Made by a program: the position numbers and the translations under genes. A stretch of 64,000 nt of DNA, taken from contig JAAILG010000027.1 in NCBI GenBank assembly GCA_012026655.1, positions 62,001 through 126,000 of the forward strand, read 5' to 3'. Numbering within the stretch: position 1 is the first letter of the stretch; each line of letters opens with the position of its first letter. The notes beneath the pieces are model-generated. The model ran no database searches. It was not told the origin of the DNA and saw nothing but the letters and a program-made list of their open reading frames with translations. Of the stretch, positions 21,440-63,886 are shown piece by piece. This DNA comes from Hydrolagus affinis (lineage: Eukaryota).

Positions 21440-21730
21440 GGGCGGGTCAGGTGGGAGACATGGAGCAGACCGGAGCCCGCTAAGTGGAGAGGGTGGGCAG
21501 ATTGTTATAGAGTTAGCAGGTCGGAGAGACAGTAAGTGGCAAATATGTAGATGGCCTTGAAAGTAAGGACAAGGATCTTGAATTCGATCCTCTGGGGGAT
21601 CAGGAGCCAATGGAGCCGGGAGAGGGTGGGAGTGATTGGGTTGTGGAGCCTAGTGTGGGATAGGAAACGAGCTGTAGAGTTTTGGATGATCTGCAGCTTG
21701 TGAAGAGCTGGGAAGGCCTGGCTATTGCAG
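21440..21730 (-). mobile_element. L2 LINE fragment
   Basis: Minus frame LHKLQIIQNSTARFLSHTRLHNPITPTLSRLHWLLIPQRIEFKILVLTFKA. Confidence 0.88.
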
Positions 21731-23337
21731 CCAGAGTCAGCATTTGTGATTCTGAGTGGTTGTTTCATGAAGTTGTTTCAGGAAGATTGCATCTTAGATC
21801 CTAAATGACATTCTGGAAACAGTGGTTATGAAAGGCTGCGATTGTCTTCTGTGTTGGCCAACGACATCACACTCTGATCTGATGATGCTCTCCTGAGTCA
21901 GTTTGTGAGTTCAAGCTCCACATCAGGATTTGAAATCCACGTAGTCAAGACCAACACTCCATTGCAGTGCTGGGGGTTTGCTGCAATATCTTTTTGAGAT
22001 TTTGATAAAACTATCTAATGTCAGCATGGAATTGTGAAGCAATGTGGCTACAAATCATAAGCAGGTGCATTGGATAGTAATAAGCTTCTCTCTCTCAAAA
22101 CAACATGTTGCTTGAGATGCCTGTATTATGGGGGCAACAATCAGACACCTTTTATACTGAACAACAATACCTTGAACTGTAACCTGAATCTTGTGGTAAC
22201 TAAGGTCCTGTAGTTTAAACAGATGGAGCACGTAGTATGTGATTGACTTTCCTGTGTGAATTACTGAGATTAGAGAACGCTTCTCTTTCTATAAACCTTC
22301 AACTCACATAAACTCCATGTACCTCAATGTAAAGTTAGCTAAGGATTTTCTGTCTTACTGCTGTTCTTACAACAAAAAGAGTCTGCTGTGTAATAAACAT
22401 AAATACGCCATGTGTGAAGGGCACCATACAAGTGCAAGCTGCTGTTGTTTTAAATAAATAAGAAAGTTTCAATTGCAAACAGAAAAAGTGCCAATGGTTT
22501 GCTTTTGCTTCATGTACACTATTCAATGATATTAGGAAAGAAGTGGGCCCCATAAGTGTGTGTGAAACACCCAGCAATTGAATGTTAGTGCACAGGTGCT
22601 GGGCTTGTTCTAATGGCAGTTATTCTTGAGAATACCATTCGGCCGTGGCACCCAATATAAATTTGAATTGCAAGGATTTTTCCATCTGCTCAAAAGGCTT
22701 GTGGTTAGATCGAGCAGAAGGGGTGTGGCATTGCTGGCAGCGCCAACTTTTCAATGTTTGTTAATGTTGACTTGGCACTGTGCCACCCACTGCATGTATT
22801 TTTTTTACATTTTTCCACCAGAGGATGTCTGCAATTGCTGTTGCAAGAGAACGCTGGGGAATTGGTGTCCTGGTTGCAGACCATTTTCGTCTTGCACCCT
22901 GGGGTACAAATGTCATGGAAGTTGTCTTGTCAATGATCCCCCAAAGTAAAATTCACTTCACTGTCATTCACTTCACAGCTCTTTGTGTGACTTTGCTGTG
23001 TACAAATTGGCTCCTGAGTTCACCCACAAAATATACAGTCATCGCACTTCAATGTATGTAAAGTGAAATATTCTACGTCATCCTCCCAACATGAAAGGCG
23101 CTATACAAAATGTAATTATTATTATTACTATTGCCATCTTGCCATGCCTTCAGTTAACTTTGCTTTCAATTAACTGACAAAGCCCAAGAATATAAATCTC
23201 ATTTGTTTGAAGAGACATTCATTGGGGTTTTGCTAAGTTATACCCTCCAAAAAATCAACGTCTTGCTATTTAAAAAATAACAATACATGAGGCTTTCCAG
23301 TTTAATGCTAATTCTGATTTCAAATGTTTCTGTGTCA

Positions 23338-23752
23338 GTTTACCTCAGTTGATATCACTCTTGCCCATTAGTCAGTTATTATGGGTTCAAAGACGTTACA
23401 TTTTGAGCTCACAAAAAAGATGGGCGCTCCAATTCAATACTAAGGTACAGCTGCATTGTTGGATGTGCCGAAATTCAGATGAGGGTCAAACTGAGGGCTA
23501 CATCTACTTGCTCGGTGTTCCCATTTAAGAGTGCCCAAGAGTAGGGTGTTTCTGTAATGTTCTGGACAACAATCACCCAAATAAAATAAGATGACTTTAC
23601 AGCTGTTGGTGTGACAAATCTATGTGCAAATTGGTGGTCTTGTTCACTTAAAAACATACAGTCACTACATGTTGCAGTAAATCCTATAAAGCACTTTCAG
23701 TCTTCCTCCTGATATGAACAATGCTATATCAACTGCAAGCATTATTACTGTT
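23338..23752 (+). mobile_element. Old, decayed DeuSINE-like copy
   Basis: Head cctcagttgatatcactcttgcc...gggttcaaag, core ggatgtgcc...cagatgagggtcaaactgagg, tail aagcactttcag...atgctatatcaactgcaagcattattact. Confidence 0.6.
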
Positions 23753-26425: not shown

Positions 26426-27611
26426 GTTTTGCATGAAAATCTCAATTTGGTTTTGGATACTCTTAAACGCAATGATGGGTTTGCACATGCGTCAAGATAC
26501 CCAGCTGACCCAAAAATATATTTTGAGTGTTGTGGCGGTTTTTGCAGGCAAATATGGCAGCTATTTGTGCCAGCGGAGTCCCAAAACAATCATGAAGTAA
26601 ATGACTAATTCATGCGATGGATTGTTGGCCAGGAAAATGGGAGAAAATCCCTTCTCTTTCTGACTTAGTGCCTTGAGATCTTTAAGGTACACCTAAATAA
26701 CAGGAACATATTTTCACATCTCATGTGCACGAATGGATTATACTGACCTGCATAATGTAAGCTTGGAACTGTACACACCTATTTTACACCAAACAATCTG
26801 TTGATACTATTGAAAACATTTTCACAACAGAATACATAGGAGCCACTTTTACCAGCCAAGAAAACTGACCACATCATTGCAGAACGCTTCAACGTCACTC
26901 AAAGGCTGAACATCAAGGCCACAGATAATCAGCCATTTATCATGAGCTCGGAAAGCCCAGAGTATCATATGTTTAGTGACTACAATTTGTGTTTCAGAAA
27001 CAGCCTGGGGCACCAAGAAATTTCTTACTGTTTTACACCAATATCTTAGTCAGGATATAGCTGTAACATTTAACCAAGGTACAGAGATATACCATTAATG
27101 AAATGATATCAGACATCAGTTTTTATGAGTTTTTAGCAGTATTGCTAAAAACTCGTTTGATATTATGGTAAAATATCCAAGCCTACTGCCTTGTCATGGC
27201 TGCCTGACATTCCAAATGATTGTGTTTATTCCCAACAAACTAGAGAATCACAGGAAACATCCGTAGGTTTAAAGTTGGGTGTAGGTTAAAAAAATATGGA
27301 AATGGTATTTTAATATTCTGTCAGTTAATATTGCTTGCATCGTTCTTCTTGCAATGGGACAGTAAGCCTGATGGAAACAATTATTACTGCATTAAAAATA
27401 ATCAAAATAAAATCCTTTCCATTCCAATTTTTTTTCCCTTCTTCCACCCATGTTTATTAAAGGATGATTTTAAACATCTGCCCCTTAATTGTTTCATCTG
27501 TGCAGAAGCCGAAGGGTAAAAATTTCACACACGCCCTCTATCGTGACCTGTGGTTAGACAGAAAACAGTTTTACCAGTCACCATGCAGCTTCCTGTCTAT
27601 GACTTCTGAAA

Positions 27612-27774
27612 NNNNNNNNNNNNNNNNNNNNNNNNNNNNNNNNNNNNNNNNNNNNNNNNNNNNNNNNNNNNNNNNNNNNNNNNNNNNNNNNNNNNNNNNN
27701 NNNNNNNNNNNNNNNNNNNNNNNNNNNNNNNNNNNNNNNNNNNNNNNNNNNNNNNNNNNNNNNNNNNNNNNNNN
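27612..27774. other. Assembly gap (163 N)
   Basis: Run of N. Confidence 1.
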
Positions 27775-27919
27775 CTCGATCAGACAAATAAGATCTATCA
27801 GTCAAATCTCAAGCCCTTTCCCAATAACTGTGCCTTCACATGTAAAGCCAATATGCATATGAACTAGTGACACAGAGGCATTGTCTTTCTGATTTATTTT
27901 TATATTGCTTTCTTGTGTC

Positions 27920-28125: not shown

Positions 28126-29221
28126 CAAGAAAAGGGAGTAAAATGACTCAGTGATATAGCACTGTGGGTAACACTAATGCAAAACAGGAGTGGCTGCACA
28201 GACTCTGCCAACCTCTAGTGACAAATCCACAGCATGCCAACTTTCATTCAATATCTGATTAGCTACAGAATTTTTTTTACATTACAAAAACTGATACATT
28301 GCCTTGGTTTAACGTTACAAAGCAATCGTAAGACCTGGTTTATATTTGAGAAAATCCACATTGTTTATTATTCCATGGACTGAAACTACAGATGCATCAT
28401 CTGTCAGCGTCCCTCAAACCACTGCAATTACAGAAATGACTACACCAATCATCATTTTCAGAAGAAAACATAATTGGGGGGAGAGAGAGGGAGGGTAGGG
28501 GAGGCGGGGGATTCACATAGTTGCTATGTATTTTTCTCCAGAATGATAAATCTTGATTCCACTTTTCATTTCTTCCTTGGTGAAGGCCTTATTTTCAGGG
28601 GAGGAATTAGCCTTCGAAAATGATGGCTTTTTCTAATATGTAAAACATGTATTTGAGGTTTATTTGACTTGATGTCTAGCAAAACAATCTAATGGGAGGC
28701 AGTGGAATAATAGGTTTGTTAATTTAGTGAAAAGTGGAATTTTTTTTAGAACCATATTTGTATGTTCCTGATTCTTCACTGCTTTGTTTTAGACACAAAG
28801 CTTTCTTTGAGCAAAGGCTGGACAGTGCTGATGTCCCTGCAGCCATGACACAGCAGCCACATGTTGAAAGACACTTGCAGCAGGCATTATTTACCTTGTC
28901 CATGATATTTGTCTACTTTTAGCTAGAGTAGCCTGTTCTTCAAATCCAAATTAAACAATGACATTTGCTTCTGGAACTGTGGGTAGAATGGGGAGGGGTG
29001 GGGAGGGGAAGCGATGGAGAGAACACAGGAGAGAAGCCAATAAAAATAAACTGCTGAGGCTTAACTTCATAAAGACGCACGGAAAACTGTCTATTTCATT
29101 ACAGTCTAAACAATATCATATGTACAGTGGAATAAGTAATGAATCCTGACATATGATTAGGCCGCTTACATAAGTTCCAAATATGCTGTGTGTGTCGTTG
29201 TCCGTCCGTCGCCCGCCCCAC

Positions 29222-29283
29222 CACCAACAACAAAATTACATTTATCGCGCGTTTTACATCAGGAGGACGTTCCAAAGCGCTGA
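29222..29283 (-). mobile_element. Isolated L2 3' tail, minus strand
   Basis: Reverse complement cagcgctttggaacgtcctcctgatgtaaaacgcgcgataaatgtaattttgttgttgg matches the L2 tail at 6577-6640. Confidence 0.8.
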
Positions 29284-29327
29284 ACAATTCAACAATTCAA
29301 ACTCGATGCCTTACATTATTTTGTGAA

Positions 29328-29657
29328 CCTGCCCACCCCCTCGGTTCAGCAGGCTCCGGTCTACTCCATGTCCCCCGCCTGACCCGTCCTACCATTGGTA
29401 GATGGGCTTTCAGCCTCTCTGCCCCCACACTCTGGAACTTTATCCCACAGTCCCTTCGCCACGCTTCCTCCCTTGCCTCCATCAAGGCTGGTTTCAAAAC
29501 CCTCCTCTTTGACTGTGCCTTCTGCTGCTCTCCCAACTCTTTCCCTCCCTTCCCCTGCCCATCTCCCTTGCTCGGGATCCGACCTGACTGTTCAGAGTCT
29601 TGGGACATCCGTGAAAAGCACTCTATAAATGTAGTTTGTTGTTGTAGTAGTTGTTGT
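29328..29657 (+). mobile_element. L2 LINE 3' fragment
   Basis: SAGSGLLHVPRLTRPTIGRWAFSLSAPTLWNFIPQSLRHASSLASIKAGFKTLLF, then tail ...gtgaaaagcactctataaatgtagtttgttgttg. Confidence 0.9.
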
Positions 29658-31479: not shown

Positions 31480-31792
31480 GTGGAGTCCTGTAGCTCAGAA
31501 GTTGGAGCACTCGTCTTGTAAGCGAGAGACCTGGGTTTGATTCCCGGCAGGGCAAAACCTTGGGCAAGTTTCCTTACTCCACATGCCTGATAATAATCTC
31601 TCAAAAAAAAACACAATAATAACTTGGTCATTTTTCACGACTCTTTGTAGGACACTACTGCGTGCAATTGGCTGCTGTGTTTTGCGCACAAAAATACAGT
31701 CAATTCACTTTACAGTAAATTCGATGAAGTGCTTTGAGACTCCTAGAGGATGTGAAAAATGCCATTTCAAATACAAGGATTATTATAATAAT
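31480..31792 (+). mobile_element. Young tRNA(Ala)-derived SINE, full length
   Basis: gtggagtcctgtagctcag...ctgggtttgattcccggcagggcaaaaccttgggcaagtttccttactccac...gtgctttgagac...caaggattatt. Confidence 0.92.
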
Positions 31793-37990: not shown

Positions 37991-40725
37991 TGAAGAAACA
38001 CCTTCAGGTAAGAGAATCTTTGAAGCACCAATATGGAGTAATTTACTAATTCGCCAAGCCTCTTTTGTTGATTTATTTATAGATTTAACACCAGTTTGGG
38101 TTTTTTGATGTTGACGCTTGGACTGCCTCCTTCAGTTGGGAGTTTATCCTGATGTTCAAATTGGCAGCTGCTTTAGCCCACAGAAATACACACAGTCACA
38201 TTGTTATATCCCGTGAAGCACTTTGAGATGACTTGATGATGCCATGAGACACTATCAAATGCAATGATTGTTATTATCAAGTGCATTTGTGAGTGAATTC
38301 ACTCAGAGCGCAGGCAATTCTGGATGGCCTGAAGTGGGCAGGTTCCACGTGGAGTGCCAAAGCAGTCACACTATCAATAGCAATGATGGAGCTGACAGTA
38401 GCAGGCAAGGGAGGGAAATTAAACATAAGTCACCAAAAGAAGTTAGCATAACCAATTACAAAAGGCTTTCTGAATCACATTCTTCCTGCTGTGTTTGTAA
38501 CTCAATATTAGTTACATAGTTACTACTGAAAAACATTGAAACTCTTGCACAATCTGCTACTTAATGGTATGCTATGCAGAAACTCTTGAGCCTCCTCTGT
38601 GGGCTATTTATCATTTTAAACCTTGCCGTTTTTCGGGCTGACTACATAAAGGATTACATATTTAGCGTTTCATTTTTTTGTGACACTCACCAAAACATGT
38701 TTGCTTTTTAATGATGAGGTTAGTTGTAAAGGAAAGAGAATCGAGATTTAGTCGGTTTAATTTTCTTCCAGTTTTGTACTTTGCAATCCATTTTGGTGAT
38801 AAATTACCCCCTCGCTCTTTTTCATTGAGCATACTGTCGATGTTTTAATTAGTTGAAGCATAATTTACAATGGGAAATATTCTGTTTAATTTAGACTGGA
38901 TTTCAAGGGTCCAAGTTGAAGCTCCTCTGGCTCTGGGGCAGGATATTCAAAGGGCGTCTGGGTTCAAAAGCAAAGAGATCACCAAGCAAGGAGATGGAGA
39001 CGCCATTTCTCCTCTTTACTGGACCACCATGTCGTACACATCGGCATGAAGAGATGGCCAAGAAAAACATACCACAGCAAACCCACTACAGAAGCTTTAG
39101 AGTGAACAGAAGCAGTCTGAGCTGAGGCACATCTGTGAAATCAAACACCAAACGAATAGGAGTTAAGAAAACACCCTTTCAACAAGTCAAGCAAAATGAA
39201 ACGACCAAACGAAGGAAGCTCTTCCCCATGCGAGCTGTATTCAAACATTAGAACAGGGTTGTTGGGAGGCCAGACTGGAGCTGTGAGCACATGTAGTCAC
39301 TGCACGTTTACAAATGCAAATGATGTCGGGTCACATCTATAAGAAGACTGTGGACATTGCCAGCTCAGCTCAGGCTGGCATGGTCGGGTGAATACGTTAC
39401 ATATATGGTGTAATTCCTCAAGGTGAAGTCAGGCATATGGATGGAGAAGAGTAAAGCAAAGTGTCTTCTTAACAATTATGACCAACTCCAACAAACCAAA
39501 CACAAATTCTAATGACATATGCAGACAATTATTAGTTCTTCCAATTCCCTGATGAAAACACTTATCTGCATAAGGACCCAAGGATAAACCATTGATACAT
39601 CTGTCCATTCCTCATCCTTTGTTGTACATCAGTCCATTCAAGGCAACAGAAAGGCATTAGCTCGATAACTGCCTTGAGGCAAAGGGGATGGTTTCAGTGT
39701 GTTACACGGGTTAACTATTTTAGGCTGCTATTAGAATTTAATGATGGTATAAATCTCTAGCAACAGATTTTATTTCAGCAAGAATACTGGAAAACCAGAC
39801 AGACTCGTTTTTTTGAGCTCATGTTTTTCTAGATATAATACTATTGCTGTGTTTGTAATGTTTGTTTGCTTTTCTTCATGGAATCTATCCTGATGTTATG
39901 TGCAATTTTGCATTAGCATGCAACTGTTACCACAATCCACTATACTGACAAATATAAGCTTCACCATCACAAAAAGACTTACACCACACAGCCATGTACT
40001 GTATTATTAAACTGTTCCTTTGTTACCCTACATATAGAATGCTGGATTGCACATGCTTCAAGAGCTTGTATTCTCTTATTGAGAACAAGCCCGAGAGAGA
40101 GCAGAGGGAGCAAACAAGTGAGAAAGGAAGAGCATGAGAACAAATGAGTGAAAGGTATGAGAGAGAAAGTAAGAGTGACTGAAAAGAAAATAAGCAAGAA
40201 AGAGAGAGACAAATGTGTGAGCAGCGTACCATAAGGTCTTTCCTTGCTATTGAAATAACCTAGTTTTCCACTTGTTTTCCACTTGTTCCAATAAGGAGCA
40301 TCATGAGTATTGCAGCAGGGGTCAGTTTAATATTCCCAAGTGCGCTGCCGATGTAGATGTAGCCAATGGGCATCTTGGAAAATCCCCACTTGGTAAGCAT
40401 TTTAATGTAGTGCAACATCTCAGATACCCTTCTTTCTTAGTACAGAGACCACTGAATGACAAGTCTTTGAATCGGCAATCTAGCCGAAAGAGATCAGGTA
40501 ATTCAGTGTTTTAAAATCATTGTCCTATCATCTCATTAATCCAGATCCGAATCCAACTCAGAGTGATGGAGGTGAGGGTCTCTCTGTGTTGCTTGTAATG
40601 GTCGTGTGTGATATAATTTGGGCAGTTTCAGCTCAGCGGTGTGGGTTATGGTATAAAGATGTCTGCAAATGATTCACTATCTGGTCATTCCATTTAAATG
40701 TCAGATTGCCTCAGCTGACAGCAAT

Positions 40726-41830
40726 CTTGTCTGGGGGTCAGAAGATGCTGGGTTCAAAGGCTCATGTCGGGAGCTCATTATCCAGGCTGTTGCTTCAGTG
40801 CAATCCTGGAGAAATACTGTATTATCAGATGTGCCATCCTTTGTGTGAGACATCAAATCAAGGACTTATCTATCTTCACTTCAGGTTTTCATTAAAATAT
40901 ACCATGGCACTATTTGAAAATAGGTATTTTCTGCATTATCTCAGTCAACAATTCTCCAGATAATAGTTGAACATTCATTCACATCATGATGGTTTGTGAG
41001 CCCTCCCTATATGTATAGTAGAAGTCTGTTTATCTGTGACTCGATGCACCGGCACTTCCGTATAACCGGCATGCCCCCCCAAAAATCCCCATTCGATAAA
41101 CCGGAACTTATCCAGAACAATAGCGATGGAGCATTTGTAAATGCATAAATAATAACATAATAATAGAATATTGTATTGGTACTTATTGTTAAAACTACTC
41201 TCTTGCGCTTTTCACCTTTGCTGGTAGATGCTGCGCTTGAAGCCATGATGCCGTGGTTGAGGTTTATTGTCCAGCGATTCTTTTATAAATGGAGCATACC
41301 AAGAGGATGAAAAAAACGGAGCGCAACTTTAAAGCCATATTAAAAGGCAGGCCGATTACGCTAGCCAATAACCCACATTGTCGCACAGGTACAGTATTTC
41401 GGTTTGCCGCTAGTAGAGTCTAGGGCTATCGGCTTGCCTCTAGTAAAGTTGCGCAACTTTAAAATCGTGCTGCTGTTTTTTTTCACCCGCTTGGCGTCCT
41501 CCACTTAAAAAAGAATTGCTGGATTGTAAACCTCAATCAGTAAAGGTGAGAAGCACAAAAGAGTAGTTTTAACAATAAGTACCAATTCTGTTATTATCTG
41601 TTATTATTTAGTCTGGCGTGTATAGTGTGTGTTAAAAGAACGTTAATTTTTTTGTAGTGGGTTTTCGGCCACGGGCTACCCGAATATCTGGCAGGCGCTT
41701 TAACCGGCATTGGCCAGGTCCTATGGGTCCCAGATAAATGGGCTTTTACTGTAAATGGTTGTAGCGTTGGCCTAGGAAAATTACTAGAGTGACCACAATT
41801 ACTATGAAGCGTTTTGAGGCGTTTGGATAC
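40726..41830 (+). mobile_element. Old DeuSINE-like copy split by a DNA transposon (parts 40726-41015 and 41752-41830)
   Basis: Head gcctcagctgacagc...gggttcaaag, core gtgccatcctttgtgtgagacatcaaatcaagg...ccatggcactatttgaa. It resumes after the insertion with aatggttgtagcg...tgaagcgttttgag. Confidence 0.7.
41016..41751. mobile_element. Non-autonomous pogo/Tigger-type (Tc1/mariner superfamily) DNA transposon with an internal palindrome
   Basis: TA at 41014-15 and 41752-53. 25-bp imperfect TIRs: TAGTAGAAGTCTGTTTATCTGTGAC versus reverse complement CAGTAAAAGCCCATTTATCTGGGAC. Subterminal (t)aaccggca repeats. Internal remnant MASSAASTSKGEKRKRVVLTI. Confidence 0.88.
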
Positions 41831-42119
41831 GATAAACCAAATTCTTTCTTTCCACAGTATAAAGAGGGCGAAAACAGCAATCGCACCCATCAGGCTGAAG
41901 ATGTGGATTTAGTGTCAAGATGGTTTTGTGACACAACTAGTGTCATTTCTCAATGGGTTTTTGAAGAGGCACGTTAAAGTTCCTGTGGAAAGCTCCGTCA
42001 GAAGGTGTGCAGTTGCAGAAGGAAATACCCGAACCAGTTACAATTCTTCACCAACTTTCTCCTGTGCAACCTCAACTTTTCAGGAGGTGTATTTCAAACT
42101 ACTGTACAAAACAGACATT

Positions 42120-42416
42120 TGTGGTTAGAGCACTCGCCTTGCAAGCGAGAGACCTGGGTTTGATTCCAGGCAAGGCAAAACCTTGGACAAGTTTCCTTAC
42201 TCCACACGCATGATAATAATCTCTCGAAAAAAAATACAATCATAAATTGGTCACTTTGATCCATGATTGTTTGTGGGACACTTCTGTGAGCAATTGGCTA
42301 CTATGTTTCACCCACAAATATACAGTCAATCCACTTTACAGTATATTCAGTGAAGTGCTTTGAGATGTCTAGAAGACGTGAAAAGCGCTATATTAAATGC
42401 AAGAATTATTATTATT
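42120..42416 (+). mobile_element. Young tRNA(Ala)-derived SINE, slightly 5'-truncated
   Basis: gtggttagagcactcgccttgcaagcgagagacctgggtttgattcc...gtgaagtgctttgagatgtctagaagacgtgaaaagcgctata. Confidence 0.92.
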
Positions 42417-44871: not shown

Positions 44872-45392
44872 ACCAACAACAAACAACAACTTGGATTTAT
44901 ATAGCGCTTTCCACGTCAGACAGCGTCTCAGAGCCCATCACAATAACAGATCCTGGGCCCAGCAGGGGGAGGGGAAAAAGGTGACCAAAGGTGCGGTTGA
45001 AAAGCAAAGTCTTTTAAGTGCGACCTGAAAATAGGAAAGGTGGGGGCGAGGTGAAGGGAGTGAGGAAGGAAGTTCCAGAGCCTCGGGACATAGTGGCTGA
45101 AGGCACGGCCGCCGACGGTGGNNNNNNNNNNNNNNNNNNNNNNNNNNNNNNNNNNNNNNNNNNNNNNNNNNNNNNNNNNNNNNNNNNNNNNNNNNNNNNN
45201 NNNNNNNNNNNNNNNNNNNNNGAACGGAGGGTCCGGGTAGGCTTGTAGGGGGAGAGTAAAGTGGTTAAATAGGGCGGGGCAAGGCCGTGTAAGGCCTTGA
45301 AGGTGAGGACGAGGATCTTGAACTCGATCCTCTGGAGAATGGGGAGCCAGTGGAGACGGGCGAGGGTGGGGGTTATATGGTCGCGGAGGCGG
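44872..45392 (-). mobile_element. L2 LINE 3' fragment containing a 100-N gap (45122-45221)
   Basis: Minus frame [41 protein letters not shown]...GGRAFSHYVPRLWNFLP; (AAC)n tail at the left end. Confidence 0.93.
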
Positions 45393-45761
45393 AACGGAGG
45401 ATTCGGGGGACAAGAAGGAGGCCAGACCTGGTAGAGTGAAGGCAATTGATACTGTTGTAATTCAATAGTCTCAAGGCCTTTAAACTTAAGCTTGTCCAGG
45501 GCAACTCTGCAACTGATGGGATACATTGTCACATTTTGGGACACAGTGTCATACTATGTGTGGCTAACACATTACGTTGTGCAATCCATCCATCTCAGGG
45601 CTCAGGAAAGTTTTGTGCTGAAAGTGACTCAATACTCACCATCCATCAATCAAGTGACGCGAGGTCAAAGCATTGAACACGGCTGCACCCAGAGGAGGAA
45701 TGTCAGTCACTCTGATCAACGGCAGTGGGTATCAGTAACAGAGTGAAGCTGGTCAAAAACA

Positions 45762-48089: not shown

Positions 48090-48392
48090 AGGTTTCCTGT
48101 TCTCTGTGGTTTTGTTTTAGCATTATCATGTGATCGCTGCTTCTACTTCCCATTATGCCTACGCACAGATAGGAAGTCTGAGTTGTGGCTTTTTCCACAC
48201 ACAAAAGAGGCTTGAGAACGAAGGAATCCAGCTTGTCCTTACCAACCACAAGTGCTGTGATAACCTGCTCATTGTTTGCTTCGGAACTTAATGAAGAACC
48301 AAAAGTGCTCTGCGTGTTTTCTCTAAACAGTGCACACTTAAGTTTAATAATCTGATACAATTTATTAAGTGTGAAGTTTGCTGATCCCTAAA

Positions 48393-48772
48393 NNNNNNNN
48401 NNNNNNNNNNNNNNNNNNNNNNNNNNNNNNNNNNNNNNNNNNNNNNNNNNNNNNNNNNNNNNNNNNNNNNNNNNNNNNNNNNNNNNNNNNNNNNNNNNNN
48501 NNNNNNNNNNNNNNNNNNNNNNNNNNNNNNNNNNNNNNNNNNNNNNNNNNNNNNNNNNNNNNNNNNNNNNNNGCAGNNNNNNNNNNNNNNNNNNNNNNNN
48601 NNNNNNNNNNNNNNNNNNNNNNNNNNNNNNNNNNNNNNNNNNNNNNNNNNNNNNNNNNNNNNNNNNNNNNNNNNNNNNNNNNNNNNNNNNNNNNNNNNNN
48701 NNNNNNNNNNNNNNNNNNNNNNNNNNNNNNNNNNNNNNNNNNNNNNNNNNNNNNNNNNNNNNNNNNNNNNNN
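48393..48772. other. Assembly gap with a 4-bp island (gcag, 48573-48576)
   Basis: Runs of N. Confidence 1.
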
Positions 48773-51700
48773 TTCAGGGTATACATAAATTGTCTGTTTT
48801 CTTTTATCAAACAGGGCATTTATTTCTATCCTGCTTGGGTAGAATGTCACTTGCTTCCAAATTCAGTCCCACAGCAGTCTGACACTAATGTGTGCCAAGG
48901 TTTGGCCAAGTGCACTGACCGTCCTAATTTTATTTCCTAGGTTTGTACGTTTAAAACCTTTTTTTCCTTCTGACTCCTTTGGTGGAGGAATCTTAAGAGG
49001 TCAGGGTCTATTCACCGCTAATTTTACATGCCACGACCCTCCTCCGAGCACAGTGTGATTTCTCTGCGAAACTGTATTACAGCTGAATAAATTAACACAA
49101 ATGACCCAGACAGCTCTCTTCCTGATTTGTCACGAGTCCAACATTTCCTTCACAGCTTCCAGCACACAGTTTTTTTTTGGGGGTGGAGTGGAATTCACAC
49201 TATCTTCTATTTTTAAGCAATCTGATGTGTAAGTGTGTGAAATAAAGTACCACCTGAATTATCCTGCACAAAGTGCTGGGACACAAGAAAATAAATTCCA
49301 AGGAATAATATTTTGACGGGAATTATTTTTCCACATTTACCCAGCCCAGTATCCGTTCCTCACGCCCTGCCCTCTCTTTCTCTTTCTCTCTCTCCCTCTG
49401 CAGCCAGCTTGTTTCTTTTTCAAGCTGTGAGTGAGAATGCCCTTTATTAAAAATATCAGCGGTAGGCTTGGATTTCACAACTAGCAAAGGACCGTTCAGC
49501 TTCACCGCCTGTTACCCTCGAACGCTGCGATGCAACAGATACATTTCAGATCAAGAATATCCCTCTGTCCCCCCCCCACCAATATTCCCCTCTGTGCTGC
49601 TGCTCAGTGTATCTACTTCACTGCCAGCAAACGGTCGGAGCCCAGGTTATTCCAGTGCAAGGACTCAGTGCAATTAAACATTTATAAAAAGATATTTGTT
49701 AAGCACAACAAATATCAGTCATTGCATGTTGTTTCTTCACATCAGCACAAGATCAATGTGCTCTCAAACCAGGTACCCAAGGCACAGAGAGGGGAGTCAA
49801 CAAAGGAAGCAGAAAGGCGGGTCCTGGATCCAACATTGGAGAATGCAACCAAACAGTAGAGTGATTGTTATATTAAAAAAAACAGGAGAATGCTGGAAAT
49901 GTGCAAGTCAACAGGCATCTGAAAGAAAAAGGTTAATGTTTCGAGGAGGATTCTTTGCCTGAATTAAAACGGCTGGGGTGGAACAGCCCCCTTTATATGC
50001 TACATGAGGGCACTGCAGGCAAATAAAGACCAGTAGCTTTTGAAGGAAAGAGCTAACAGTACACAAAGGGGCTAACCTTTGGATCATTAACAGATTATGA
50101 GGTGCTGGCATTCAAGGCTGGTGCAGGTAGAACACAGGTGGGTGTGTAAGAAAGCACAAAACCTTTGTACGGATCTGGATTTAAAATAATAATCTGGGGT
50201 GGGGTGGGTGAGGGGTGTGGAAATGGAGGAGGCGGCTAAAGGTTAGAAGGGCTGAAAAGGAAATCTTGGGCCCCTAGAAATCTGAGGTTAAAAGCAGAGA
50301 ATGCTACAAATGCACAGCAGGCAAAACAGCATCTGAAAGAGAAAGACAGGAGGACAAAGCCTCGGAAACCCCAGGGTGATTGTTATTAGCTGCGCTGCTT
50401 ATTGCTGCTTTAAATGTGAAAGATGTCCTTATTTTTTTCATAAAAAGAGAGAGCTGCCTCATCCCCTGCTGAAGTGTACCACTCGAGTGAGTGGCACATG
50501 CTAGCAATTACACCTCACTCCTATCCTGCCCATTGCACCAAATAAGAATAATAATCCTTGCATTTGATATAGCGCCTTACCACTTCTTCGAGGTATCTCA
50601 AAGCGCTTCACAGAACATACTGTAAAGTGATTTGACCATCAGACACCAGTATGAGCACCAGTCACAGAGTTGCAGGAGGGAAAACACTACCAGCGTTTGT
50701 TTGATATCTTGTTCCTTCTTTTATATATCAAAAACAAAATAAAAAAAACAATATTACCACTGCGCTATGAGATTGTTTTTGCCATCATTATTATGGAAAC
50801 CTGAATTGAGCCCCGAGTCAAAACTTGCATCCTCATTGTTCTTTCTTTGGGGGAAAGAAAATGTGATAATTAAGTAAAAGTTCTTGCTTTCATTTTCCAG
50901 TTTGAGTGGCTTTCAACCTCCTCCCCTATTTCCAGCCAGTGTTTAATTGCATGGCAACTTAGCATGCGTCAGCGTTGTGGGAGTGTGGTGGGGAAAAATG
51001 CATCTCATGACATTGCAGATAGAATTAAACCATCCTGTTTAGTGATTCCACCCAGAAAAAGAAATTTAAAAAAAGTATTTTTTTTAATGATGTGCAGCAT
51101 AAACCGAATATTGTACAGGGAAATTGGTGGAATAACCAGTGTTTTCCCTTTACGACTTGACACTTGTGAGTTATTTTCCTGAAGCAAAGCCTTGGTTCCA
51201 CTATTCCCCTTCGGATCAAATATTAATCCTCAGAGCCTTGCGGATGAGCTATCTTTTCTGAGCACGATCATATTGCACGCAGCACCAATCAGTTGTCCAG
51301 TTGTGTGTAGCATTTCCTGCTGTGATCCTTTAAAGTGTGTCTAAACTTAATCTTAGAATTTTAAACATGGACCGGCTGAAAAAAAATGGCCTTTTGGAGC
51401 AAGCGTACCAACAGGCCAATTGTTTGGCATGGTGTATACTTGATTAATTGTGGTGCACTGAGGAGCGGGAGTCTTGGGGAGATGCCACATTTAGATCCGA
51501 AAATAATCATGAATAGGTTTAGAGTTAGAACAGCATTTTCATTGGGGTCAGGGTTGGGAGTGAGGAGAGTAGGAGAATAGGAGCAACTGTAAAATAATAA
51601 AACTAAAGAGCGGTAGGAAAGAGGAGCACTGGAAATGGATTTAAGAGCTTCAGTTGATGAAATTAATTTTGCGATGTGAAGGCATCGTTCATTTGGTTCA

Positions 51701-52673: not shown

Positions 52674-52980
52674 GGGAGTCTTATAGCTCAGTGGTCAGAG
52701 CATTCGCCTTACAAGTGAAAAACCTGGGTTCGATTCCCAGCAGGGCAAAACCTTGGACAAGTTTCCTTACTCCACATGCCTGATAATAATCCCTCAAGAA
52801 ATAAAAACAATAATGAATTGGTCATTTCAATCCACAACTATTTGTGGGACACTATTATGCACAATTGCCTGTTTTGTCCACAAATATAGTCAATTCACTT
52901 TACAGTCTATTCTGTGAAGCGCTTTGAGACATATAGAATACATGAAAAGCGCTATATCAAATACAAAGATTATTATCATT
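52674..52980 (+). mobile_element. Young tRNA-derived SINE, full length
   Basis: ggagtcttatagctcagtggtcagagcattcgccttacaagtgaaaaacctgggttcgattcccagcaggg...gtgaagcgctttgagac...gattattatc. Confidence 0.92.
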
Positions 52981-55900
52981 AAATAACACTTTGTGTTATC
53001 CCTCTTTGCAGATTAAATTTAATCTTGTGTTATGTTTCATCAGACCGAGGAATAGCTTTGAAATGTACGCTGAAATGCTGTTAACAAAGTTGTTGGGTGT
53101 ATGGAATCCATTCCTTAGTAATAGCAGGAGTAGATGAACAATGATGAAAAATACTAACACAGCAAGAGAGTTCACAAACCACAGCTTAATATAATGGACT
53201 TTCAGATAGAGGTGGGGATAAAATATCTGTCATTTTCCCACTGCTTACCTAGGTAGGACCACCTTACTTGTTAGGCTTGTAGTGTTAACAGGAGCTGAAT
53301 GAGAAGAATCCCTGTAAAAAAAATTAATTCTGCATGCAGAGATCTGAGCATTTGTACTGGACTGCCTCAAAAGACTGCCTCAATCAAAGTTTGATTGAGA
53401 TATTTGAACGAGAAATGATAAGATATTTGGTAAGCAGATATTATGGGATATGAGGAAAAGGCATGTAAAATGGAATTAATAAAAGTGGCTAAGAAAGCAA
53501 CAATTTTAATACAACAAATTTCATCATACAACAGAATAAAAACAAAAGTACATTTATAGAGCGCCTTCCATGTTGGGAGGACGTCCCACATGATACAAGG
53601 AAAAGCAAACACTCAAGAAGCAGACAAGAAACAGCTATTTCTTACGTCCTACGTAACAACTGTTTATTCCAGATTCATGTGCAAAACTGCCATCAGTTAC
53701 TCCTGATTCAATGCTCTATTACTAGCAGAAACTATTCTCACCTCAGTGAGTGAGAGAAGCTTCTCTGCTGCTTCAAATCTCCTTGATGAACCTACGACAA
53801 TCCAGTTCCTCTTCAATTAGACCCTCTCATGGTTCACACCTCTCCCCCTAATCCACACAGCTTCTCAGTAGCCATTATCTTGGTCTAGACTCCTCGCTAA
53901 CAACAACAAATAGTCCAGATCTGCCAGATCAATTACTTCTCCTGTTCAAGTCCATTACCCATAAGCAATTTCTCTCAGAACCTGGTAGAGGAACAGAAGC
54001 TACTGTCAGTGGAAGCTCCATGTAGTTTGTAGCAGCTCATTTCAATGATTTGAAACAGTGAAGGCAACCTCTGTGACTGAAATTTGAAACACAGACTTAA
54101 TGCCTCCCTGTGTCCTGCAGAAATTAATCTTTGAAAAAAAGGATCCATGTCTTTTTTTAAAAAGCGAAAAATACAATTCACTTTTAAGTCTTTTTACCTC
54201 CCCACATCACCCCACTCCACCACGCTGTGCTCCAAAGATTATTATTAAAGTAAAAGTCAAATTGAAATACAAAATAGGTGTAAAAATATATGTGAATCCA
54301 ATGCATCAAGCGATGACAGAGTATCAAAAACATTCTGATTGTGATGTGACCTTCATAACCCATGAAGGATGAATATTTGGGGTACTCAGTGATTCCCTGG
54401 GGGATATCTTCTATTAATTCACTAGACATTCAGTACAGCTTAGCATCAGTGATTCAGTAGCCCAGTTGCAATACCATTTTGAATATTGTAAAGATCATCT
54501 TCTGTCTTATTGAGAATGAGAATAAAGCAAATCACTCAGATGTTAATCTTAATGTACTGGATTAATGGGTTGAACGCAGTAACAGCTACCAGCAAAATAT
54601 TAGTGTAAAACACATCTGATCTTGAACTGTATGCAGAAAATGGTTAAAATAAAGCAATAGACAACGTGTTTTTTTGCTGCTTAATGAAAAGAATGGTAGC
54701 AAGAGCTCAAACTGCTTCACTCTTGCAAGTGATTACCTCTACATTTTATTTAAAATCTGTGCTAACTGCTACTTATATTTTTTTAAATGCAGAATAAAAG
54801 GTGCAAGTTCGGATCCCACTGAAACAAGTTAATGGCCACAAGAATCTTTAAGAACAGCCCACTTGATTCCTTGCGTCAAAATCCTAAAAATATTCTATAG
54901 GAAAACAATCCTGCATCTTTCCACATCTGTAAATCCAGTTATGCTTAATGATGAACAGCAAGCAAGTGGTGGAGCTGAAATACAGCCCACACAATGACAT
55001 GGGTAACACCGAGGTGGTGTATTTTGAGTTGCCTTGATTTTTACCTTGAATGCTCTTTGTGGAGCAGATGAATCCTTTCACACACTCTTTGGCATCTGAC
55101 GATGAAATGCCCTGACACACTGCATCTAAGCACATGTGTGTCAAGCGGATTGTCCGACTAGCCTGGTCAAGCCATAACCATAAGGTCATTCACCAACTTG
55201 ATAAGTGAAAATGGGAGTGGGGAAAATCCACTCACTGCTTTTGTCCTATTTTCAGTAATGGTCAGAATCAGTGCTAATTAGGGCCCTAGGGGGAGTTGTT
55301 TCTGTGTGTGGTGTGATGCTTGCGGGAATGGGAGGAGAACGAGAGGGACAGTGAGCAAGTAAAAGAAGGAGAAGCCAGTGATTGAAGACAGAATGAAGTA
55401 TAACTTTTAAAAGAATGCTCCAAGACTCTCCAAGACCGCATGTGAAGGCTGCTAAATAAATACTTGTCGTTGTTGTTGAATGTCCTTTATTGGAGACGAC
55501 TTGAGTAAATGCCACACTTACAGCTTCAATAACACTTCAGCATTTATTTGACGAGGAATGAAACCATTAATGACACAGAAGTAAAAGATGGCAGCTTATT
55601 ACTGCAGCTAGATGTTAACCACAACAAGCTTCAGATTTCATCTGTGAACCTTCTGGCTAATTTCTCTGCCCCCAGGCATAAAACTAAACTGGAATCCATA
55701 CAAAAATGGTCACCGCATTTTGATCTATTGGAACCCAAGGATACATAGCACCTGCACAAATGACTAATTGCTGGAAACCCATTAGGAGTCCTAGTGTGCA
55801 CTTGCTTCAATAGAATTCCTTTCTCCTTTCTGACACACCTGTAAATCCTATAATTGCCATTGTGTTTACCAATGAAACCACTGTGACTTCTGAACAGGTC

Positions 55901-56049
55901 TTATGCTTCTTTAGATACAACCTAATGATTAATCTGACAAGGTTTTAAGAAGCCTGCAAAGAAAAAGGAAAATAAATAAAATACAGTTTGTATTTATTTG
56001 GGAAGAGGGCTGATGTATTTTGTGAATGACATCGCTACCTGATATTTGT

Positions 56050-57275
56050 GATATCTGTGACCAGGGTTCCCTCTGCCTCCTTATCCTCCTGGACCTGTCA
56101 GCTGCCTTTGACACAGTCGACCACGCCATCCTCCTCCACCGCCTGTCCTCCGCCATCCACCTCAGTGGGACCGCACTCGCCTGGTTCGAGTCCTACCTCA
56201 CAAACGTTTTTTCCTCCCGCACTCACACAGTTACCTGTGGGGTACCCCAGGGATCCATCCTTGGTCCCATCCTTTTCCTCATCTACACGCTTCCTCTTGG
56301 GGATGTGATCCGCAGACATGGGGCACACTTCCACATGTACGCGGATGACACCCAACTCTATCTCTCCACTTCACTGTGACCCCCAGTCCCCCGATGTTCT
56401 GTCAGCCTGCCTTTCAGACATCAGGGGCTGGATGAGTGCAAATTTCTTGCAGCTGAATGTTGACAAGACGGAGGCCATACTCCTTGGCTCTCGTCAATGT
56501 CTCCATTCGCACGGCTCTCACCTCCTCCACCTTCCCGGCCTGCCCCTAAAACTCACCGAACCTGTGCGCAACCTTGGCATCAGGTTCGACCCCCAACTGT
56601 CCTTCCTCCCCCACATCCGGTCCGTCACCAGCACTGCCTTCCACCACCTCCGATGGATCACCCGTCTCCGGCAATACCTCACCTTAAAAGCCGCCAAAAC
56701 CTTGGTCCACGCCTTCATCACCTCTCGGCTGGACTATTGCAACGCCCTCCTCGCCGGTCTCCCCTCCACCACAATCCACAAAATCCAGCTTGTCCAAAAC
56801 TCTGCCTCCCACATACTCACCCACACCAAGCTTCGCTCCCCCATTACCCCAGTCCTTGCCAGACTTCACTGGCTCCCTATCCCGGAGAGCATCGACTTCA
56901 AGATCGTCACCATTGTTTTCAAATCCCTCCATTCCTCTGCACCCCCTATCTCTCTGATCTCTCTCCCCAACCCAGCACCCGCTGCCTTCGCTCCTCTGGG
57001 TCTGGCCTCCTCCATGTCCCCCGAGTCCTCCGCTCCACCCTCGGCGGCCGTGCCTTTAGCCACTACGCCCCGAGGCTCTGGAACTCCCTTCCTCACTCGC
57101 TTCGCTTCGCCCCCTCTCTTCCCAGTTTCAGGTCACAGTTGAAGACCTTTCTCTTCGACCGAGCTTTTGGTCACCTTCCCGCCCCTGCCCCTGGCTCGGT
57201 CCCGGGATCCGCTACTGTGAAGCGCTCTGAGACGCCGTCCGGCGTGGAGGGTGCTATATAAATCGAAGTTGTTGT
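56050..57275 (+). mobile_element. L2 LINE, 5'-truncated, with degenerate reverse transcriptase and 10-bp TSD
   Basis: RT motifs [39 protein letters not shown] (YADD 56338-56349), WMSANFLQLNVDKTE, FITSRLDYCNALL. Frameshifts near 56375 and 56945. (GTT)n tail. TGATATTTGT at 56040-49 and 57276-85. Confidence 0.96.
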
Positions 57276-59534
57276 TGATATTTGTATTCGATTCTTTTAA
57301 AGACAACATCTGCCGGAAAGTGTTTTATTTCAGGGACATCTCACCGTCAAGTGAGGGAGAATGCAATGTTCCCCCAGCGTATATTTTCCTGTTGAGAAGT
57401 ATGCAGATAATGAATGGCAATGCCAATTCTGCTCTTTATCCAGCCAGTAAAGGATAATAGTAGAATAGGAACAATCCGTATTGACCATCCTCTGTAGATA
57501 AGGTATTTGTTCACTCTACAATATCTCCCTGTACAGTGACAGGCCTGAGCATGACTGGGGTCGGGGGGTGGGAGGGGTCAATTTCCTTTTTCACACCTTG
57601 TCTCCATTGGTGCCGTAACACCTGGAGACAGCTGCTCCTCAATCTTTGAAATGATAAACTGGAGGCGGTCTCCTCAGAAACACGCCTTTACTATTTCAGG
57701 TTATGAAGAGTTTGAACCATTGTGAACTTGATCGTTATCCCCAATAATCTGCATTGGGCACTCTTCACGAGGAATGAATGCAACAGGCAGCAATATACAG
57801 GACGTGAGCACGGATAAACACCACAGATTTGATAGAGTGCCTTATTACATCATTGAGACGTCTCAAAGCACTTCACAGGATACACTGTAAAGTGGCATGA
57901 CTGTGTATTCCTGTGAGCGTAGCTTGCCACAGTTGCACACAGCAGTGTCCCACCAACAGCCGTGGAGTGACCAATTTTGTTTGGAGAATTGTTAGCCAGG
58001 ACACTGGCCAAAAACACAAGATAAACATAAAAGCAGCTCAGCTTTTTAACCAAAATAACTTAAATATACTTCATTAGCAGTCCTTGCAGTTAAAACTATC
58101 AGTGAAAGAAGGCTCAGAATATATTCCAGAATTGCTCCACAAACACAATTATATAGCATTCGATATAACTGAAGTTATTCAAAAATGCTGCAATGCTGCT
58201 TTAATGGACAAAATCTCATTGTATTGTAAAATAAATGATTGGGTCCAGACAATAGAAAATAGAAATGTATCTTTATTGCCTATTAATTTTTCATGCAGAA
58301 ATATACAAATGTGCATCTAACTATTGTTCTGGATCCTGGTCTCCATTTTCAGGCCTCAACTGTAACCTTAGGGCATGCAAACATGTAGATAACTGTGGCT
58401 AGCATGAATCGTTTACGTGGTAAGTTATCTGTTAGAAAATTGTGGAAAACTCTTTGATTTCTTAAATGGGGTCGAACTGAATACGTGCGTTGCACCAAGT
58501 TTTCAATATGCTGCTCAAGTGATCCATCAAGCGGTACAAAACTGCATCGGTGACTGCACTTCCCCCAATCCCTTCTCTGATATCTGGCAGGAATAATGAA
58601 CCACATTTTTAGCAATAAAATTCAGTGACCAGCTGTCCAACGAGGTAGGTCTGTGAGCGAAGTCCTCATGCCTTATTGCTCGCTAAATAGGCTACACTGT
58701 GCTAATTTTCGAAAAATGTTGGCAATTACCATTTTCCTCAGCTTCCATGCTAACAGTGCTTCATACAAGCGCACATGAGCCAAAACAAACATCCCCAATA
58801 AATTCTTTTAACATTCACACTGTAGCCGCTGAACCTGCTGAATCATAGGCCATGGCAAACTGGCTGGCGTGATGTCTTCTAACCAGATTTCACATCCGTC
58901 ACTATAAAATGTTCAGTGGTTCAAGGGCTTGTTCCATTCTGGAGAAAGGTCAGTGTTAGCCACCTTATGGCTGTAACCCTTTCAAATGGAGAAGCCTGAC
59001 TCAACCCTGGCTGACGGGAAGTCACACAAATTGCTAATTTTACTTTTAGATATATTTATAGACAGCGGTTACCAGAATGAAGATGGATTGATAACTTCTA
59101 TTGCAGGATCACTTAAGCCTGAAAGGAAGATCGTGCAGTATATAAAAGATAACCCAAACGTTTCTTTATCAGGCCTAACTCAGCAGAATATGTTGTTTTT
59201 TCCAAACATCTCGCATGGCTTTTCCAAACTGCCTTAATTGCCATGCTGTACACAGGTTTTCGAAAAGGGAAATAAAGTGCTCACAAAAGCTTTGAACTCA
59301 AAGGTAATTCTCCGATTCCAGCTGCTCATTCCAATTGTCCAGTGTAAAACTGCCGAGTGGGTCTCGCCTTTCATTCATGTGTATCCATTCCATTGTGTGA
59401 GAAACAACATGGTTTAAAAATGCTCCTATTAACACGACTGACCGGGGGCTGGTAAAACGGCCCGAATTGAAACGTGGATTGTCGATTGTCAACCAAAATC
59501 TATCTAGGCACACGTAGACATGTATGGGGAATAA

Positions 59535-59851
59535 TAACAGTAATAATCCTTGCATTTGATATAGCGCATTTCATATTTTATCAACGTTCCAAAGCACTTC
59601 ACAGAATATACTGTAAAGTGAATTGACTGTATATATTTGTGGGCAAATCGCGGCAGCCAATTGCATACAGCAATGGATTGAAATGACCAATTTTATTATT
59701 GTGTGTTTTTTTGGAGGGATTATTATTCGGCGTGTGGAGTAAGGAAACTTGCCAAGGTTTCACCCTGACCTGCCTGGATTCGAACACAGGCAGCTTGGTC
59801 TCCCCAGCTTGCAAAACAAGTGCTCTAACCACTGAGCCACAGGAGCTCCAC
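59535..59851 (-). mobile_element. Young tRNA-derived SINE, full length, minus strand
   Basis: taataatccttgcatttgatatagcgc...gtggagtaaggaaacttgccaaggttt...tgctctaaccactgagccacaggagctccac. Confidence 0.92.
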
Positions 59852-61534
59852 AATATATTGCATGCTGTTCTTAAAGCATTTCAGTCCACTTCGACAAGAC
59901 CAGTCACAGATCTGGAAGAACATAGCAGCTAATCTCTATTATTTCTTTACAACAAACTGTAAACAAAACTTCCTGGATACTTAGTAAGATGAACTTTGAC
60001 TTGAAATATCACTAATAATTGATAGCAAGTTCTGGCTAGAAACATGCAAATCAAATAGTGGGACACATGCCAATCTACAATAAGGCACACACTGGCTTCG
60101 ATTCACCCCCACTCTTTCTCTCTATCTCTGTGGTGAACAAGAGTAATTCCTGAAACAAACAATTCAATATTCCTAGGTCTGTTGAAATGATTTCCCAATT
60201 TGTATCTCTCCCATCTCCGATCAAGATCCCTTGATCTCGTGCCATTGGGTCAGCTCACCAATACAGGGCCATGTCCATCGCTGTTGTTTCTATTGTGGCA
60301 ATATAACAACTGCTGTTCCTCCCACTCCCAATCCAATATCACTTCACATCAATTTCAAACGTTCACTTTGTATCTCACCGATTATGAAAACCACAGAAAT
60401 CAGAGCAATAACATCGTACTGCCAGCAACTACACTGTTGTTTACTAAACACGTAAATCATTTCAAAGGGTCCTAGATACTGTGAAGCACACACAGACCAG
60501 TGAGAGTATTTCGGAACAGGGTTCAAGTGGAGAGCTCCTTTGGAGGAGCTAGCACTAACACAGACACAAGGTGGAAAGAGTAGGGGAATTAGATGCGAGT
60601 CAAATTTTAAGATTAGCTAGGTTGGTATGTTTGAGGGGATTATGTGTAGGTGGCTGTATATGGATGGTGGTTGGTTGTGTACATGAGTGAGGCGGGGAAG
60701 GAGAGCGTAAGAATCCCCTTTGCTGAAATTCACTGCCAATTGGAGCTCACAGACAGCGAGGCATTCGGACAATGTTGTGCCTAAAGATTTGATAGTATTT
60801 ATTGGCATTTCACAGAATTCTTCAATGTGTTTGCAAACGAGAAGTGTCACAATTCAATGCTTAGTTCCAGTTCCGCTTGTTAAACTATCAATCAAAAAGC
60901 CAGACAAAAATAAGACGCCAAAAGAAAAACATAAATAAAAGTGGCAGAAAGAGAAAATGAAAAGACATAAAAACACTTCAAATGTGAGAAAAAGAGACGA
61001 TCAAAAGGAAAAAGAAAAATATTGAATAAACCTGATTAAACACAAAGTTCTCTGTTTAAGATTTGTGTTCCACACATGCAAGCATGCTATTGCTGTATCA
61101 CTGAAAAGGCATGAATTTGCTTGCAGCTAAATTCATCTGATTTTTTTTAAAAACTGAGATTCAGTGAAAATTAAAATGTTGAAATTCAAAGGAGGTAAAG
61201 ATAGCAACCACAAACTGATCAATTTGTCAGTTATCGGCTAAGTTAAAGCACCAGTGTAAAATAGTAGCTATGTTTCAGTTTGAGCAAACCAGCCTGAAAG
61301 CTAAACATCCCAGGCGGATGAAGAAACCCCTATGGTCCATCTGATCTCATCACTCCACAATATCTCCACTGTCCTCCCCAACATCAACCATTTTTTTTTC
61401 CAATGAGAATGAATCCCAAATAAATATTTACATTGATATGGTTCCATTCATGTAAAGGCATCACATTACAACTGCCGTTGTGGACACTGAGCAGGAGAGT
61501 AAAGAGATTTGAAGAGATGCTGACAAAGATATTA

Positions 61535-61856
61535 TTATAATGATAATAATTATAATAATCCTTGCATTTCATATAGTGTTCTTCACATCTTACAGATGTC
61601 TCAAAGCGCTTCACAGAATATACTGTGAAGTGAATTGACTGTATATTTGTGGGCGAAACACGGCAGCCAATTGCGCACATCAGTGTCCCACAAACAGTTG
61701 TGGATTGAAGTGACCCATTTATTATTGTTTTTTGAGGGATTGTTATCAGACATGTGGAGTAAGGAAACTTCACCAAGGTTTTGCCCTGACTGGAACTAAA
61801 CCCAGGTCTCTCACTTACGAAGTGAGTGCTCTAACCACCAAGCTACAGGACTCCAC
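61535..61856 (-). mobile_element. Young tRNA-derived SINE, full length, minus strand
   Basis: ataatccttgcatttcatatag...cccaggtctctcacttacgaagtgagtgctctaaccaccaagctacaggactccac. Confidence 0.92.
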
Positions 61857-63484: not shown

Positions 63485-63886
63485 ATGTTCACTTCATCAT
63501 ATTGTCAAAATATCTCAAAGCGCTTCACAGGATTAAATAAATATAGTGCAGTGACTGTGTATTTTGTTGTCAAATGGGGCAGCTAACACAACAATGTCCC
63601 ACAAACAGCCATGATGTGAATGACCAAAATTATCTGGAAGATTATTGGCTGGTACACTAGAAGTAACTCCCTTCTCTTTTTCTGCAGGGTCATACAATCT
63701 TTAGTGTCCATCTAAACAGGAAGAAGGGACTTTGTTTTAATATCTCATCTGAAGGACTTCATCTCCAATAATGCAGTGCACTCCCATCGCTGCACTGGAA
63801 TTACAGACTAATACAGTCCTATCCAATGGAGGGATGGAACCCACAATCTTGTGACATAGAGGTGAGATTGTTACCAACTGAACTAG
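63485..63886 (-). mobile_element. Old DeuSINE (SacSINE1-like) copy, minus strand
   Basis: Tail tctcaaagcgcttcacag, core ttttaatatctcatctgaaggac...aatgcagtgcactcccatcgctgcactgg, head gaacccacaatcttgtgac...gttaccaactgaacta. Confidence 0.72.

Follow-up and report, generated by a model that had tools for sequence, protein, structure and literature searches.

A likely dead Tigger element with an internal palindrome of JRK-like transposase start sequence in the ZFHX4 region of Hydrolagus affinis

The 736-bp element at positions 41016-41751 of the stretch analyzed here (64,000 nucleotides, referred to as the window) is a non-coding, decayed remnant of a cut-and-paste transposon, real but most likely an inert fossil. 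We consider it likely that it is a dead non-autonomous Tigger of the pogo superfamily from the 'Tig1-like' lineage that is sister to JRK, a passive fossil in neutral decay. At its center, two inverted copies of a transposase 5' untranslated region (5'UTR) and translation start form an imperfect palindrome, which is distinct from the terminal inverted repeats of the element.

Results

Boundaries of the element and its insertion site

The element is flanked by TA on both sides, with a left target-site copy at 41014-41015, supported by the sequence and by an empty-site alignment, and a right copy at 41752-41753, read from the sequence. Its terminal inverted repeats (TIRs) are located at 41016-41040 (plus strand, a 5'-type end) and 41727-41751 (minus strand, a 3'-type end) and are identical at 19 of 25 positions. 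The first base of the left TIR is T, where its relatives carry C. Apart from this base, these are short TIRs (up to 40 bp) of the CAGT type, in line with the type-1 TIR definition of Gao et al. (2020; PMC7386202), and the TA target-site duplication (TSD) is that of a Tigger. An earlier note on this DNA had reported the TA duplication, TIRs of 25 bp and an insertion into an older SINE, all of which we recovered.

The 5' part of this older SINE lies at 40699-41015 (plus strand) and is recognized by its match to 23333-23700 and 63600-63881, and the 3' part continues past the TA at 41754-41827 (plus strand). We take it to be a Deu/SacSINE1-like SINE of the Deu-domain type. The empty site was reconstructed in silico by removing the element together with one TA and joining the flanks. 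It aligned through the junction, without a gap at the TA, to another, independent copy of the old SINE, at 23333-23700 (E=7e-10). Against a profile built from six young SINE copies with this tail in common, the empty site matched at E=1.7e-4, again with no gap at the TA, in comparison to E of about 0.015 for either the filled site or the right flank alone and no match for the left flank alone. Including a further copy at 7291-7561, the older SINE copies in the window are mutually 59-62% alike. No second copy of the element was found within the 64-kb window. Within the element there was no internal TIR-like match, with only the two ends recovered at four or fewer mismatches.

The host gene, on the minus strand, was identified as ZFHX4 (best matches of its large exon to ZFHX4 at 66-70%) and has exons at 17783-17646, 11922-11803, 11166-10957 and from 4306 downward. 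No further upstream ZFHX4 exon was found in the 64-kb window beyond 17783-17646, and about 1100 ZFHX4 residues fall outside the window; from these two observations we infer that the element is positioned in an intron of ZFHX4. ZFHX4 as the host gene had already been named in the earlier note. In a quick tree of 16 rows, the large exon that ends at 4306 joined the four bony-vertebrate ZFHX4 rows with 100% SH-aLRT support and branched outside those four (97%) in the absence of a chondrichthyan reference, a position that fits a cartilaginous fish.

The repeat landscape of the window comprises a young, tRNA-headed SINE, which shares its 3' part alone with the older SINE, and LINE fragments that are presumably L2-like. 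The six young SINE copies (7654-7955, 31480-31792, 42118-42416, 52675-52981, 59531-59859 and 61545-61856, in addition to fragments) have a mean pairwise identity of 81%, and their heads are tRNA according to both ARAGORN and Rfam. At gathering level, Rfam identified tRNA-like SINE heads only, and near the element it gave one chance match (E=0.85). LINE 3' fragments are present at 56026-57258 (plus strand) and at about 5950-6640, 21410-21720, 29220-29650 and 44880-45450; a frameshifted RVT_1 match is found at 56026-56376 (E=4.6e-17), and the LINE pieces at 6143-6313 and 45222-45392 are an inverted pair of 92% identity inside ZFHX4. A second hairpin in a ZFHX4 intron has 71-bp arms at 5560-5630 and 5802-5872 that are identical at 70 of 71 positions, a 171-bp LINE-like spacer and no TIR-like ends that we noted; its arm is presumably a CR1-type 3' fragment, and it would form far more perfect double-stranded RNA (dsRNA) than the arms of the Tigger. 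The large ZFHX4 exon contains tandem repeats at 3066-3169 and 2051-2188 (periods 6-24), the former encoding a QAQ-rich run. Assembly gaps are located at about 27600-27780, 45120-45220 and 48390-48780, with 639 N in total. This SINE and LINE landscape fits the description of Callorhinchus milii, where a young SINE shares its 3' tail with an older one as the CmiSINE/SacSINE1-CM pair (PMC5499810), and would thus suit a chimaera.

An internal palindrome between two different ends

Inward of the left TIR, a 5' subterminal region (41041-41145, plus strand) with three ACCGG motifs (41048, 41065 and 41100) leads into the left arm (41146-41364, minus strand), a 55-bp loop (41365-41419) and the right arm (41420-41610, plus strand), all delimited by self-alignment, and then into a 3' subterminal region (41611-41726, plus strand), assigned by eye by comparison with a published Tigger 3' end. 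The arms are identical in 150 of 180 aligned columns (83%). The left arm carries the inverted 5'UTR, the ATG, about 21-22 codons and the AT-rich segment that follows the deletion. The right arm, in the element's own sense, lacks 32 bp facing 41222-41253, the stretch that holds the ATG (CAT at 41244-41246), and retains the remnant SKGEKHKRVVLTI at 41539-41577 (plus strand). Arms and loop were located where the earlier note had described them, the loss around the ATG of the right arm that it had pointed out is now measured, both arm peptides translate as it gave them, and the head-to-head duplication of the transposase 5'UTR and start codons is supported.

A chance origin of the palindrome was rejected, given a self-alignment score of the arms of 194.5 when 500 dinucleotide shuffles averaged 25 and did not exceed 44. 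The element also had the top self-alignment score among 604 N-free 740-bp segments of the window. RNA folding gave z=-18.7 for the plus and z=-14.8 for the minus strand, with none of 20 shuffles as stable on either strand. The longest perfect match between the arms is 27 bp, there are seven perfect 21-bp windows, and folding predicts an uninterrupted helix of 34 bp on the ZFHX4 pre-mRNA strand.

The earlier designation as a fold-back element is appropriate for the shape, a hairpin, but not for the class. The long repeat lies inside the element and not at its ends. Past the TIR, the outermost 130-140 bp of the two sides are different and not mirror images of one another, for which reason we rejected membership of the Foldback class. 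By eye, the left 130 bp of the element resemble published Tig1-like 5' ends, and the right 140 bp resemble 3' ends. Having a 5'-type end on the left and a 3'-type end on the right, it reads along the plus strand, opposite in sense to ZFHX4. Judging from the sequence, the original copy, in sense orientation, is represented by the right arm, with the left arm as its putative inverted duplicate.

Both arms exit the coding sequence at one common point and then enter a common AT-rich stretch. Since they share this junction and the AT-rich sequence downstream of it, the internal deletion preceded the duplication. Inside the right arm, an 18-bp perfect palindrome (41444-41461) overlaps 13 bp (41451) that repeat, in direct orientation, the top strand of the left arm (41321), and the two together are a possible template-switch footprint. 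The register near 41444-41474 is ambiguous, and realignment of the inner arms with cheaper gaps left it unsettled.

The transposase remnant and its affinity to JRK

The N-terminal transposase remnant of the left arm comprises 21 codons (41184-41246, minus strand), assigned by translation and by comparison, by eye, with the published ORF starts of Tiggers. Its ATG is preceded by A at -3 and followed by G at +4. From this ATG, an open frame of 79 amino acids extends to a stop ending at 41007 (41007-41246, minus strand); it has the sense of ZFHX4 and crosses the left TIR as well as non-coding sequence. By shuffling, a stop-free run over the 55 non-coding codons has p of about 0.02.

Aligned by eye and without gaps, the remnant matches the start of the Pelodiscus Tig1-like ORF at 15 of 21 amino acids, and over SKGEKRKRVVLTI it matches alligator at 34 of 39 nucleotides, with four of the five differences synonymous. 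Its KGEKRKRVVLT is identical in opossum JRK. The string GEKRKRV occurs 104 times in the PMC7386202 table of domesticated proteins (first 400 characters of each cell), and all 104 are in the JRK sheet, because occurrences 1-2 and 101-104 are there and the sheets are read in order. Residue 21 of the remnant is I as in platypus JRKL, where JRK has L, and the left TIR matches at 19 of 23 positions (by eye) that of coelacanth (Latimeria) Lach-Tig1-like1, an element listed away from JRK. We conclude that the remnant likely belongs to the JRK lineage. Because of residue 21, the closer match of the left TIR to Lach-Tig1-like1 and a remnant too short for a tree, this link is one of resemblance rather than of proven phylogeny. 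The derivation of a non-autonomous pogo/Tigger element from the JRK source lineage, as put forward earlier, thus keeps its support from the TA TSD, the TIR type and an N terminus like that of published Tiggers, and stands short of a tree.

The element contains no intact coding sequence for CENP-B_N, HTH_Tnp_Tc5 or DDE_1, and none of its 26 segments of 20 amino acids or more gave a Pfam match. No partner transposase domain was present in 150 of the 151 long open segments of the window, and the remaining segment is covered by the Pfam scan of the element. A 40-amino acid query with the remnant against longer proteins returned three candidates, none at E≤10, and a 30-amino acid query against 1.84 billion representatives returned no match. 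There was no match of the remnant peptide in the PDB and no usable match in the Atlas. For the 79-amino acid frame, there was no candidate among proteins of similar length, and the Atlas recognition score was low. The peptide searches came back empty because the remnant is too short.

Divergence of the arms

The non-CpG divergence of the arms is 26/170 (15%), in comparison to 16.5% for the 15 pairs of the six neighboring young SINE copies. Transitions outnumber transversions by 20 to 10 among the differences between the arms. The transitions result in 11 G-U pairs on the plus and 9 on the minus strand, indicating no strand bias and thus no sign of selection on the fold of either strand.

One CpG is kept in both arms and four in one arm only, and the corresponding counts for the SINE pairs are 21 and 102. 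The CpG observed/expected ratio of the element is 0.93, the highest of the 604 segments, compared with 0.40 overall and 0.39-0.57 for the six SINE copies. The surrounding 40800-42000 is the peak of the same 604 segments, with values of up to 0.96 in comparison to 0.40. The high ratio suggests a younger or unmethylated copy, the arms of which had already diverged in the master element. Identity is 64/69 in the outer part of the arms and 86/111 in the inner part (Fisher p=0.007, for a post hoc split), and this unevenness could result from gene conversion or selection. The high CpG content, the contrast between outer and inner parts and the 79-codon open frame count against pure old decay. For this single copy, they fit either a younger copy of a master with diverged arms or conversion.

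Discussion

The history we favor would begin with an autonomous element that lost nearly its whole transposase gene, by which codon 21-22 became joined to AT-rich 3' sequence. A template switch in the course of gap repair or replication would then probably have placed an inverted copy of the block of 5'UTR, ATG and junction beside the 5' end. With a transposase presumably supplied in trans, the element inserted at a TA inside the older SINE, probably in what is an intron of ZFHX4. Subsequently, the arms would have drifted apart without evident selection, in the course of which the sense arm lost its ATG. On transcription of ZFHX4, the arms would pair passively in the pre-mRNA into an imperfect stem about 180 bp long, with no evolved role. 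Long intronic stems of this kind may be edited by ADAR. Other sources of dsRNA in ZFHX4 include the 70/71 hairpin at 5560-5872 and many inverted SINE and LINE pairs. The roles proposed in the earlier note, an endo-siRNA source for silencing or a divergent promoter, are not supported by the sequence, in which the arms appear to decay like their neutral neighbors and G-U pairs show no strand bias.

It is unlikely, in our judgment, that the element is instead a chimera of two related Tigger derivatives placed head to head, the arms of which would be paralogous 5' ends from different subfamilies. Such an origin might explain why the coding part is 93% and the UTR 77% identical, why the TIRs are alike at 19 of 25 positions with the left one resembling another published Tigger, and why CpG retention is high despite an arm divergence of 17%. 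However, one deletion junction and the non-coding sequence downstream of it are common to both arms, the left end is 5'-like by eye although its arm is antisense, and an internal TIR-like match is absent.

By analogy to Mu killer of maize, the palindrome might be a feature of the family, and read-through from a host gene such as ZFHX4 might generate hairpin siRNAs directed against the 5' end of an autonomous transposase, making the element a mobile killer. We regard this as quite improbable. The arms span exactly the 5'UTR and start codons, the match between them is closer in the outer, coding part than in the inner one, and the 34-bp helix on the pre-mRNA strand, the 27-bp longest match and the seven perfect 21-bp windows are compatible with such a role. 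Yet identity between the arms is 83% and a 32-nt bulge lies over the ATG, G-U pairs lack strand bias, and a partner transposase domain is absent from the long open segments of the window (150 of 151, the other one having been covered separately). Vertebrates dice long intronic dsRNA poorly except in special cell types and their germline relies on piRNA, which further argues against this role. The precedent itself (PMC3440606; PMC1784062) has two copies of one TIR, whereas the element has two different ends.

Even less probable is co-option in cis, with the element acting as a divergent promoter or enhancer of ZFHX4 or encoding a 79-amino acid micropeptide with a basic KRKR motif in the ZFHX4 sense. 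This would be in line with the highest CpG observed/expected ratio of the window, the good Kozak context and the stop-free frame (p about 0.02). However, the product has no relative in the protein search or the Atlas, where its recognition score is low, and a younger DNA transposon would be expected to be rich in CpG. An inverted misjoin, conceivable in a draft assembly with 639 N bases in the window, was rejected and has a negligible probability, given that a misjoin would give near-identical arms whereas here mismatches occupy 30 of 180 columns, in addition to several indels, and that the TIRs are intact, the TSD is present and the SINE flanks are collinear.

A wider reading, again by analogy, would be that the palindrome is a stable, amplified trait of non-autonomous JRK-lineage Tiggers, common by descent or recurrence to a cartilaginous-fish family and to mammalian Tigger13a, and that such elements act as mobile suppressors resembling Mu killer. 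We hold this to be very doubtful. If it were true, these Tiggers would jump by means of the transposase, settle in transcribed introns and give rise to small RNAs against its 5' end, a self-limiting path to extinction for the lineage that left JRK. A palindrome that is family-wide and a source of small RNAs would be a mobile vertebrate counterpart of Mu killer, and self-silencing of DNA transposons would become testable in vertebrates.

Tigger13a, a mammalian non-autonomous element, is presumably of similar length and the same layout, with a central palindrome containing two inverted JRK-like transposase starts. It is listed as a human consensus of the Mariner/Tc1 class (PMC5753468, Table 5). 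We found no description of the element or of the structure of Tigger13a in the literature searched, which is weak evidence of absence given that Repbase, Dfam and most subscription papers were outside its scope. MER6 was considered as a precedent for an internal palindrome but had no support in the literature consulted and was dropped.

The closest published relatives are the Tig1-like elements of PMC7386202 (Table S1 and Fig. S5), comprising Pesi-, Chmy-, Chpi- and Mate-Tig1-like1 and Tetr-, Apsp-, Almi-, Alsi- and Gaga-Tig1-like. According to these listings, the turtle and crocodilian elements are 2.2-2.8 kb in length, most of them with transposases of 520-600 amino acids. Fig. S5 places all of the set except Gaga next to JRK, with platypus JRK on one side and the JRK pseudogenes of fish and frog on the other, in an order of labels rather than a topology. 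A mobile JRK-source lineage is thus already known, since full-length Tig1-like Tiggers are published and listed beside JRK. The element shares with them the TA TSD, TIRs of 22-26 bp starting with CAGTAAAAGC or a close variant, the N terminus MAS...SKGEKRKRVVLT (in rows with a visible start, by eye) and similarly placed subterminal motifs (within the first 400 bases of each, by eye). Also by eye, its right TIR matches that of Pelodiscus Pesi-Tig1-like1 at 17 of 22 positions, gharial Gaga-Tig1-like carries at the corresponding place of its 5' end the same 9-mer as the element at positions 49-57, and a 9-mer at 43-51 from the right end of the element recurs in the 3' end of Chelonia Chmy-Tig1-like1 at positions 42-50. 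Unlike these elements, it is 736 bp in length, retains 21 codons, contains an internal inverted duplication and resides in a cartilaginous fish. JRK, by contrast, is a host gene without TIRs, which the element possesses. Callorhinchus, Hydrolagus and Scyliorhinus are missing from the PMC7386202 transposon table, in which the single Rhincodon row belongs to another clade. As a single data point, the element suggests that JRK-lineage Tiggers were mobile in cartilaginous fish too.

Palindromic non-autonomous DNA elements are common in vertebrates, accounting for 24 of 238 MER consensus sequences (PMC5424272). Palindromic MITEs and MERs such as Made1 and MER53 form hairpins on read-through, and some gave rise to miRNAs (PMC1784062; PMC5424272). 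The stem of Made1 consists of its TIRs, whereas the stem described here is internal and holds coding-start sequence. In Mu killer, the 5' part of a transposase gene is duplicated in inverted orientation and read through from a host gene; it carries TIRA twice, forms a hairpin on the kilobase scale and has been demonstrated to silence (PMC3440606; PMC1784062). The element resembles it in its inverted duplication of transposase 5' sequence and, through its probable intronic placement, in a read-through position, and differs from it in having one 5'-type and one 3'-type end and arms of about 200 bp that are 83% identical.
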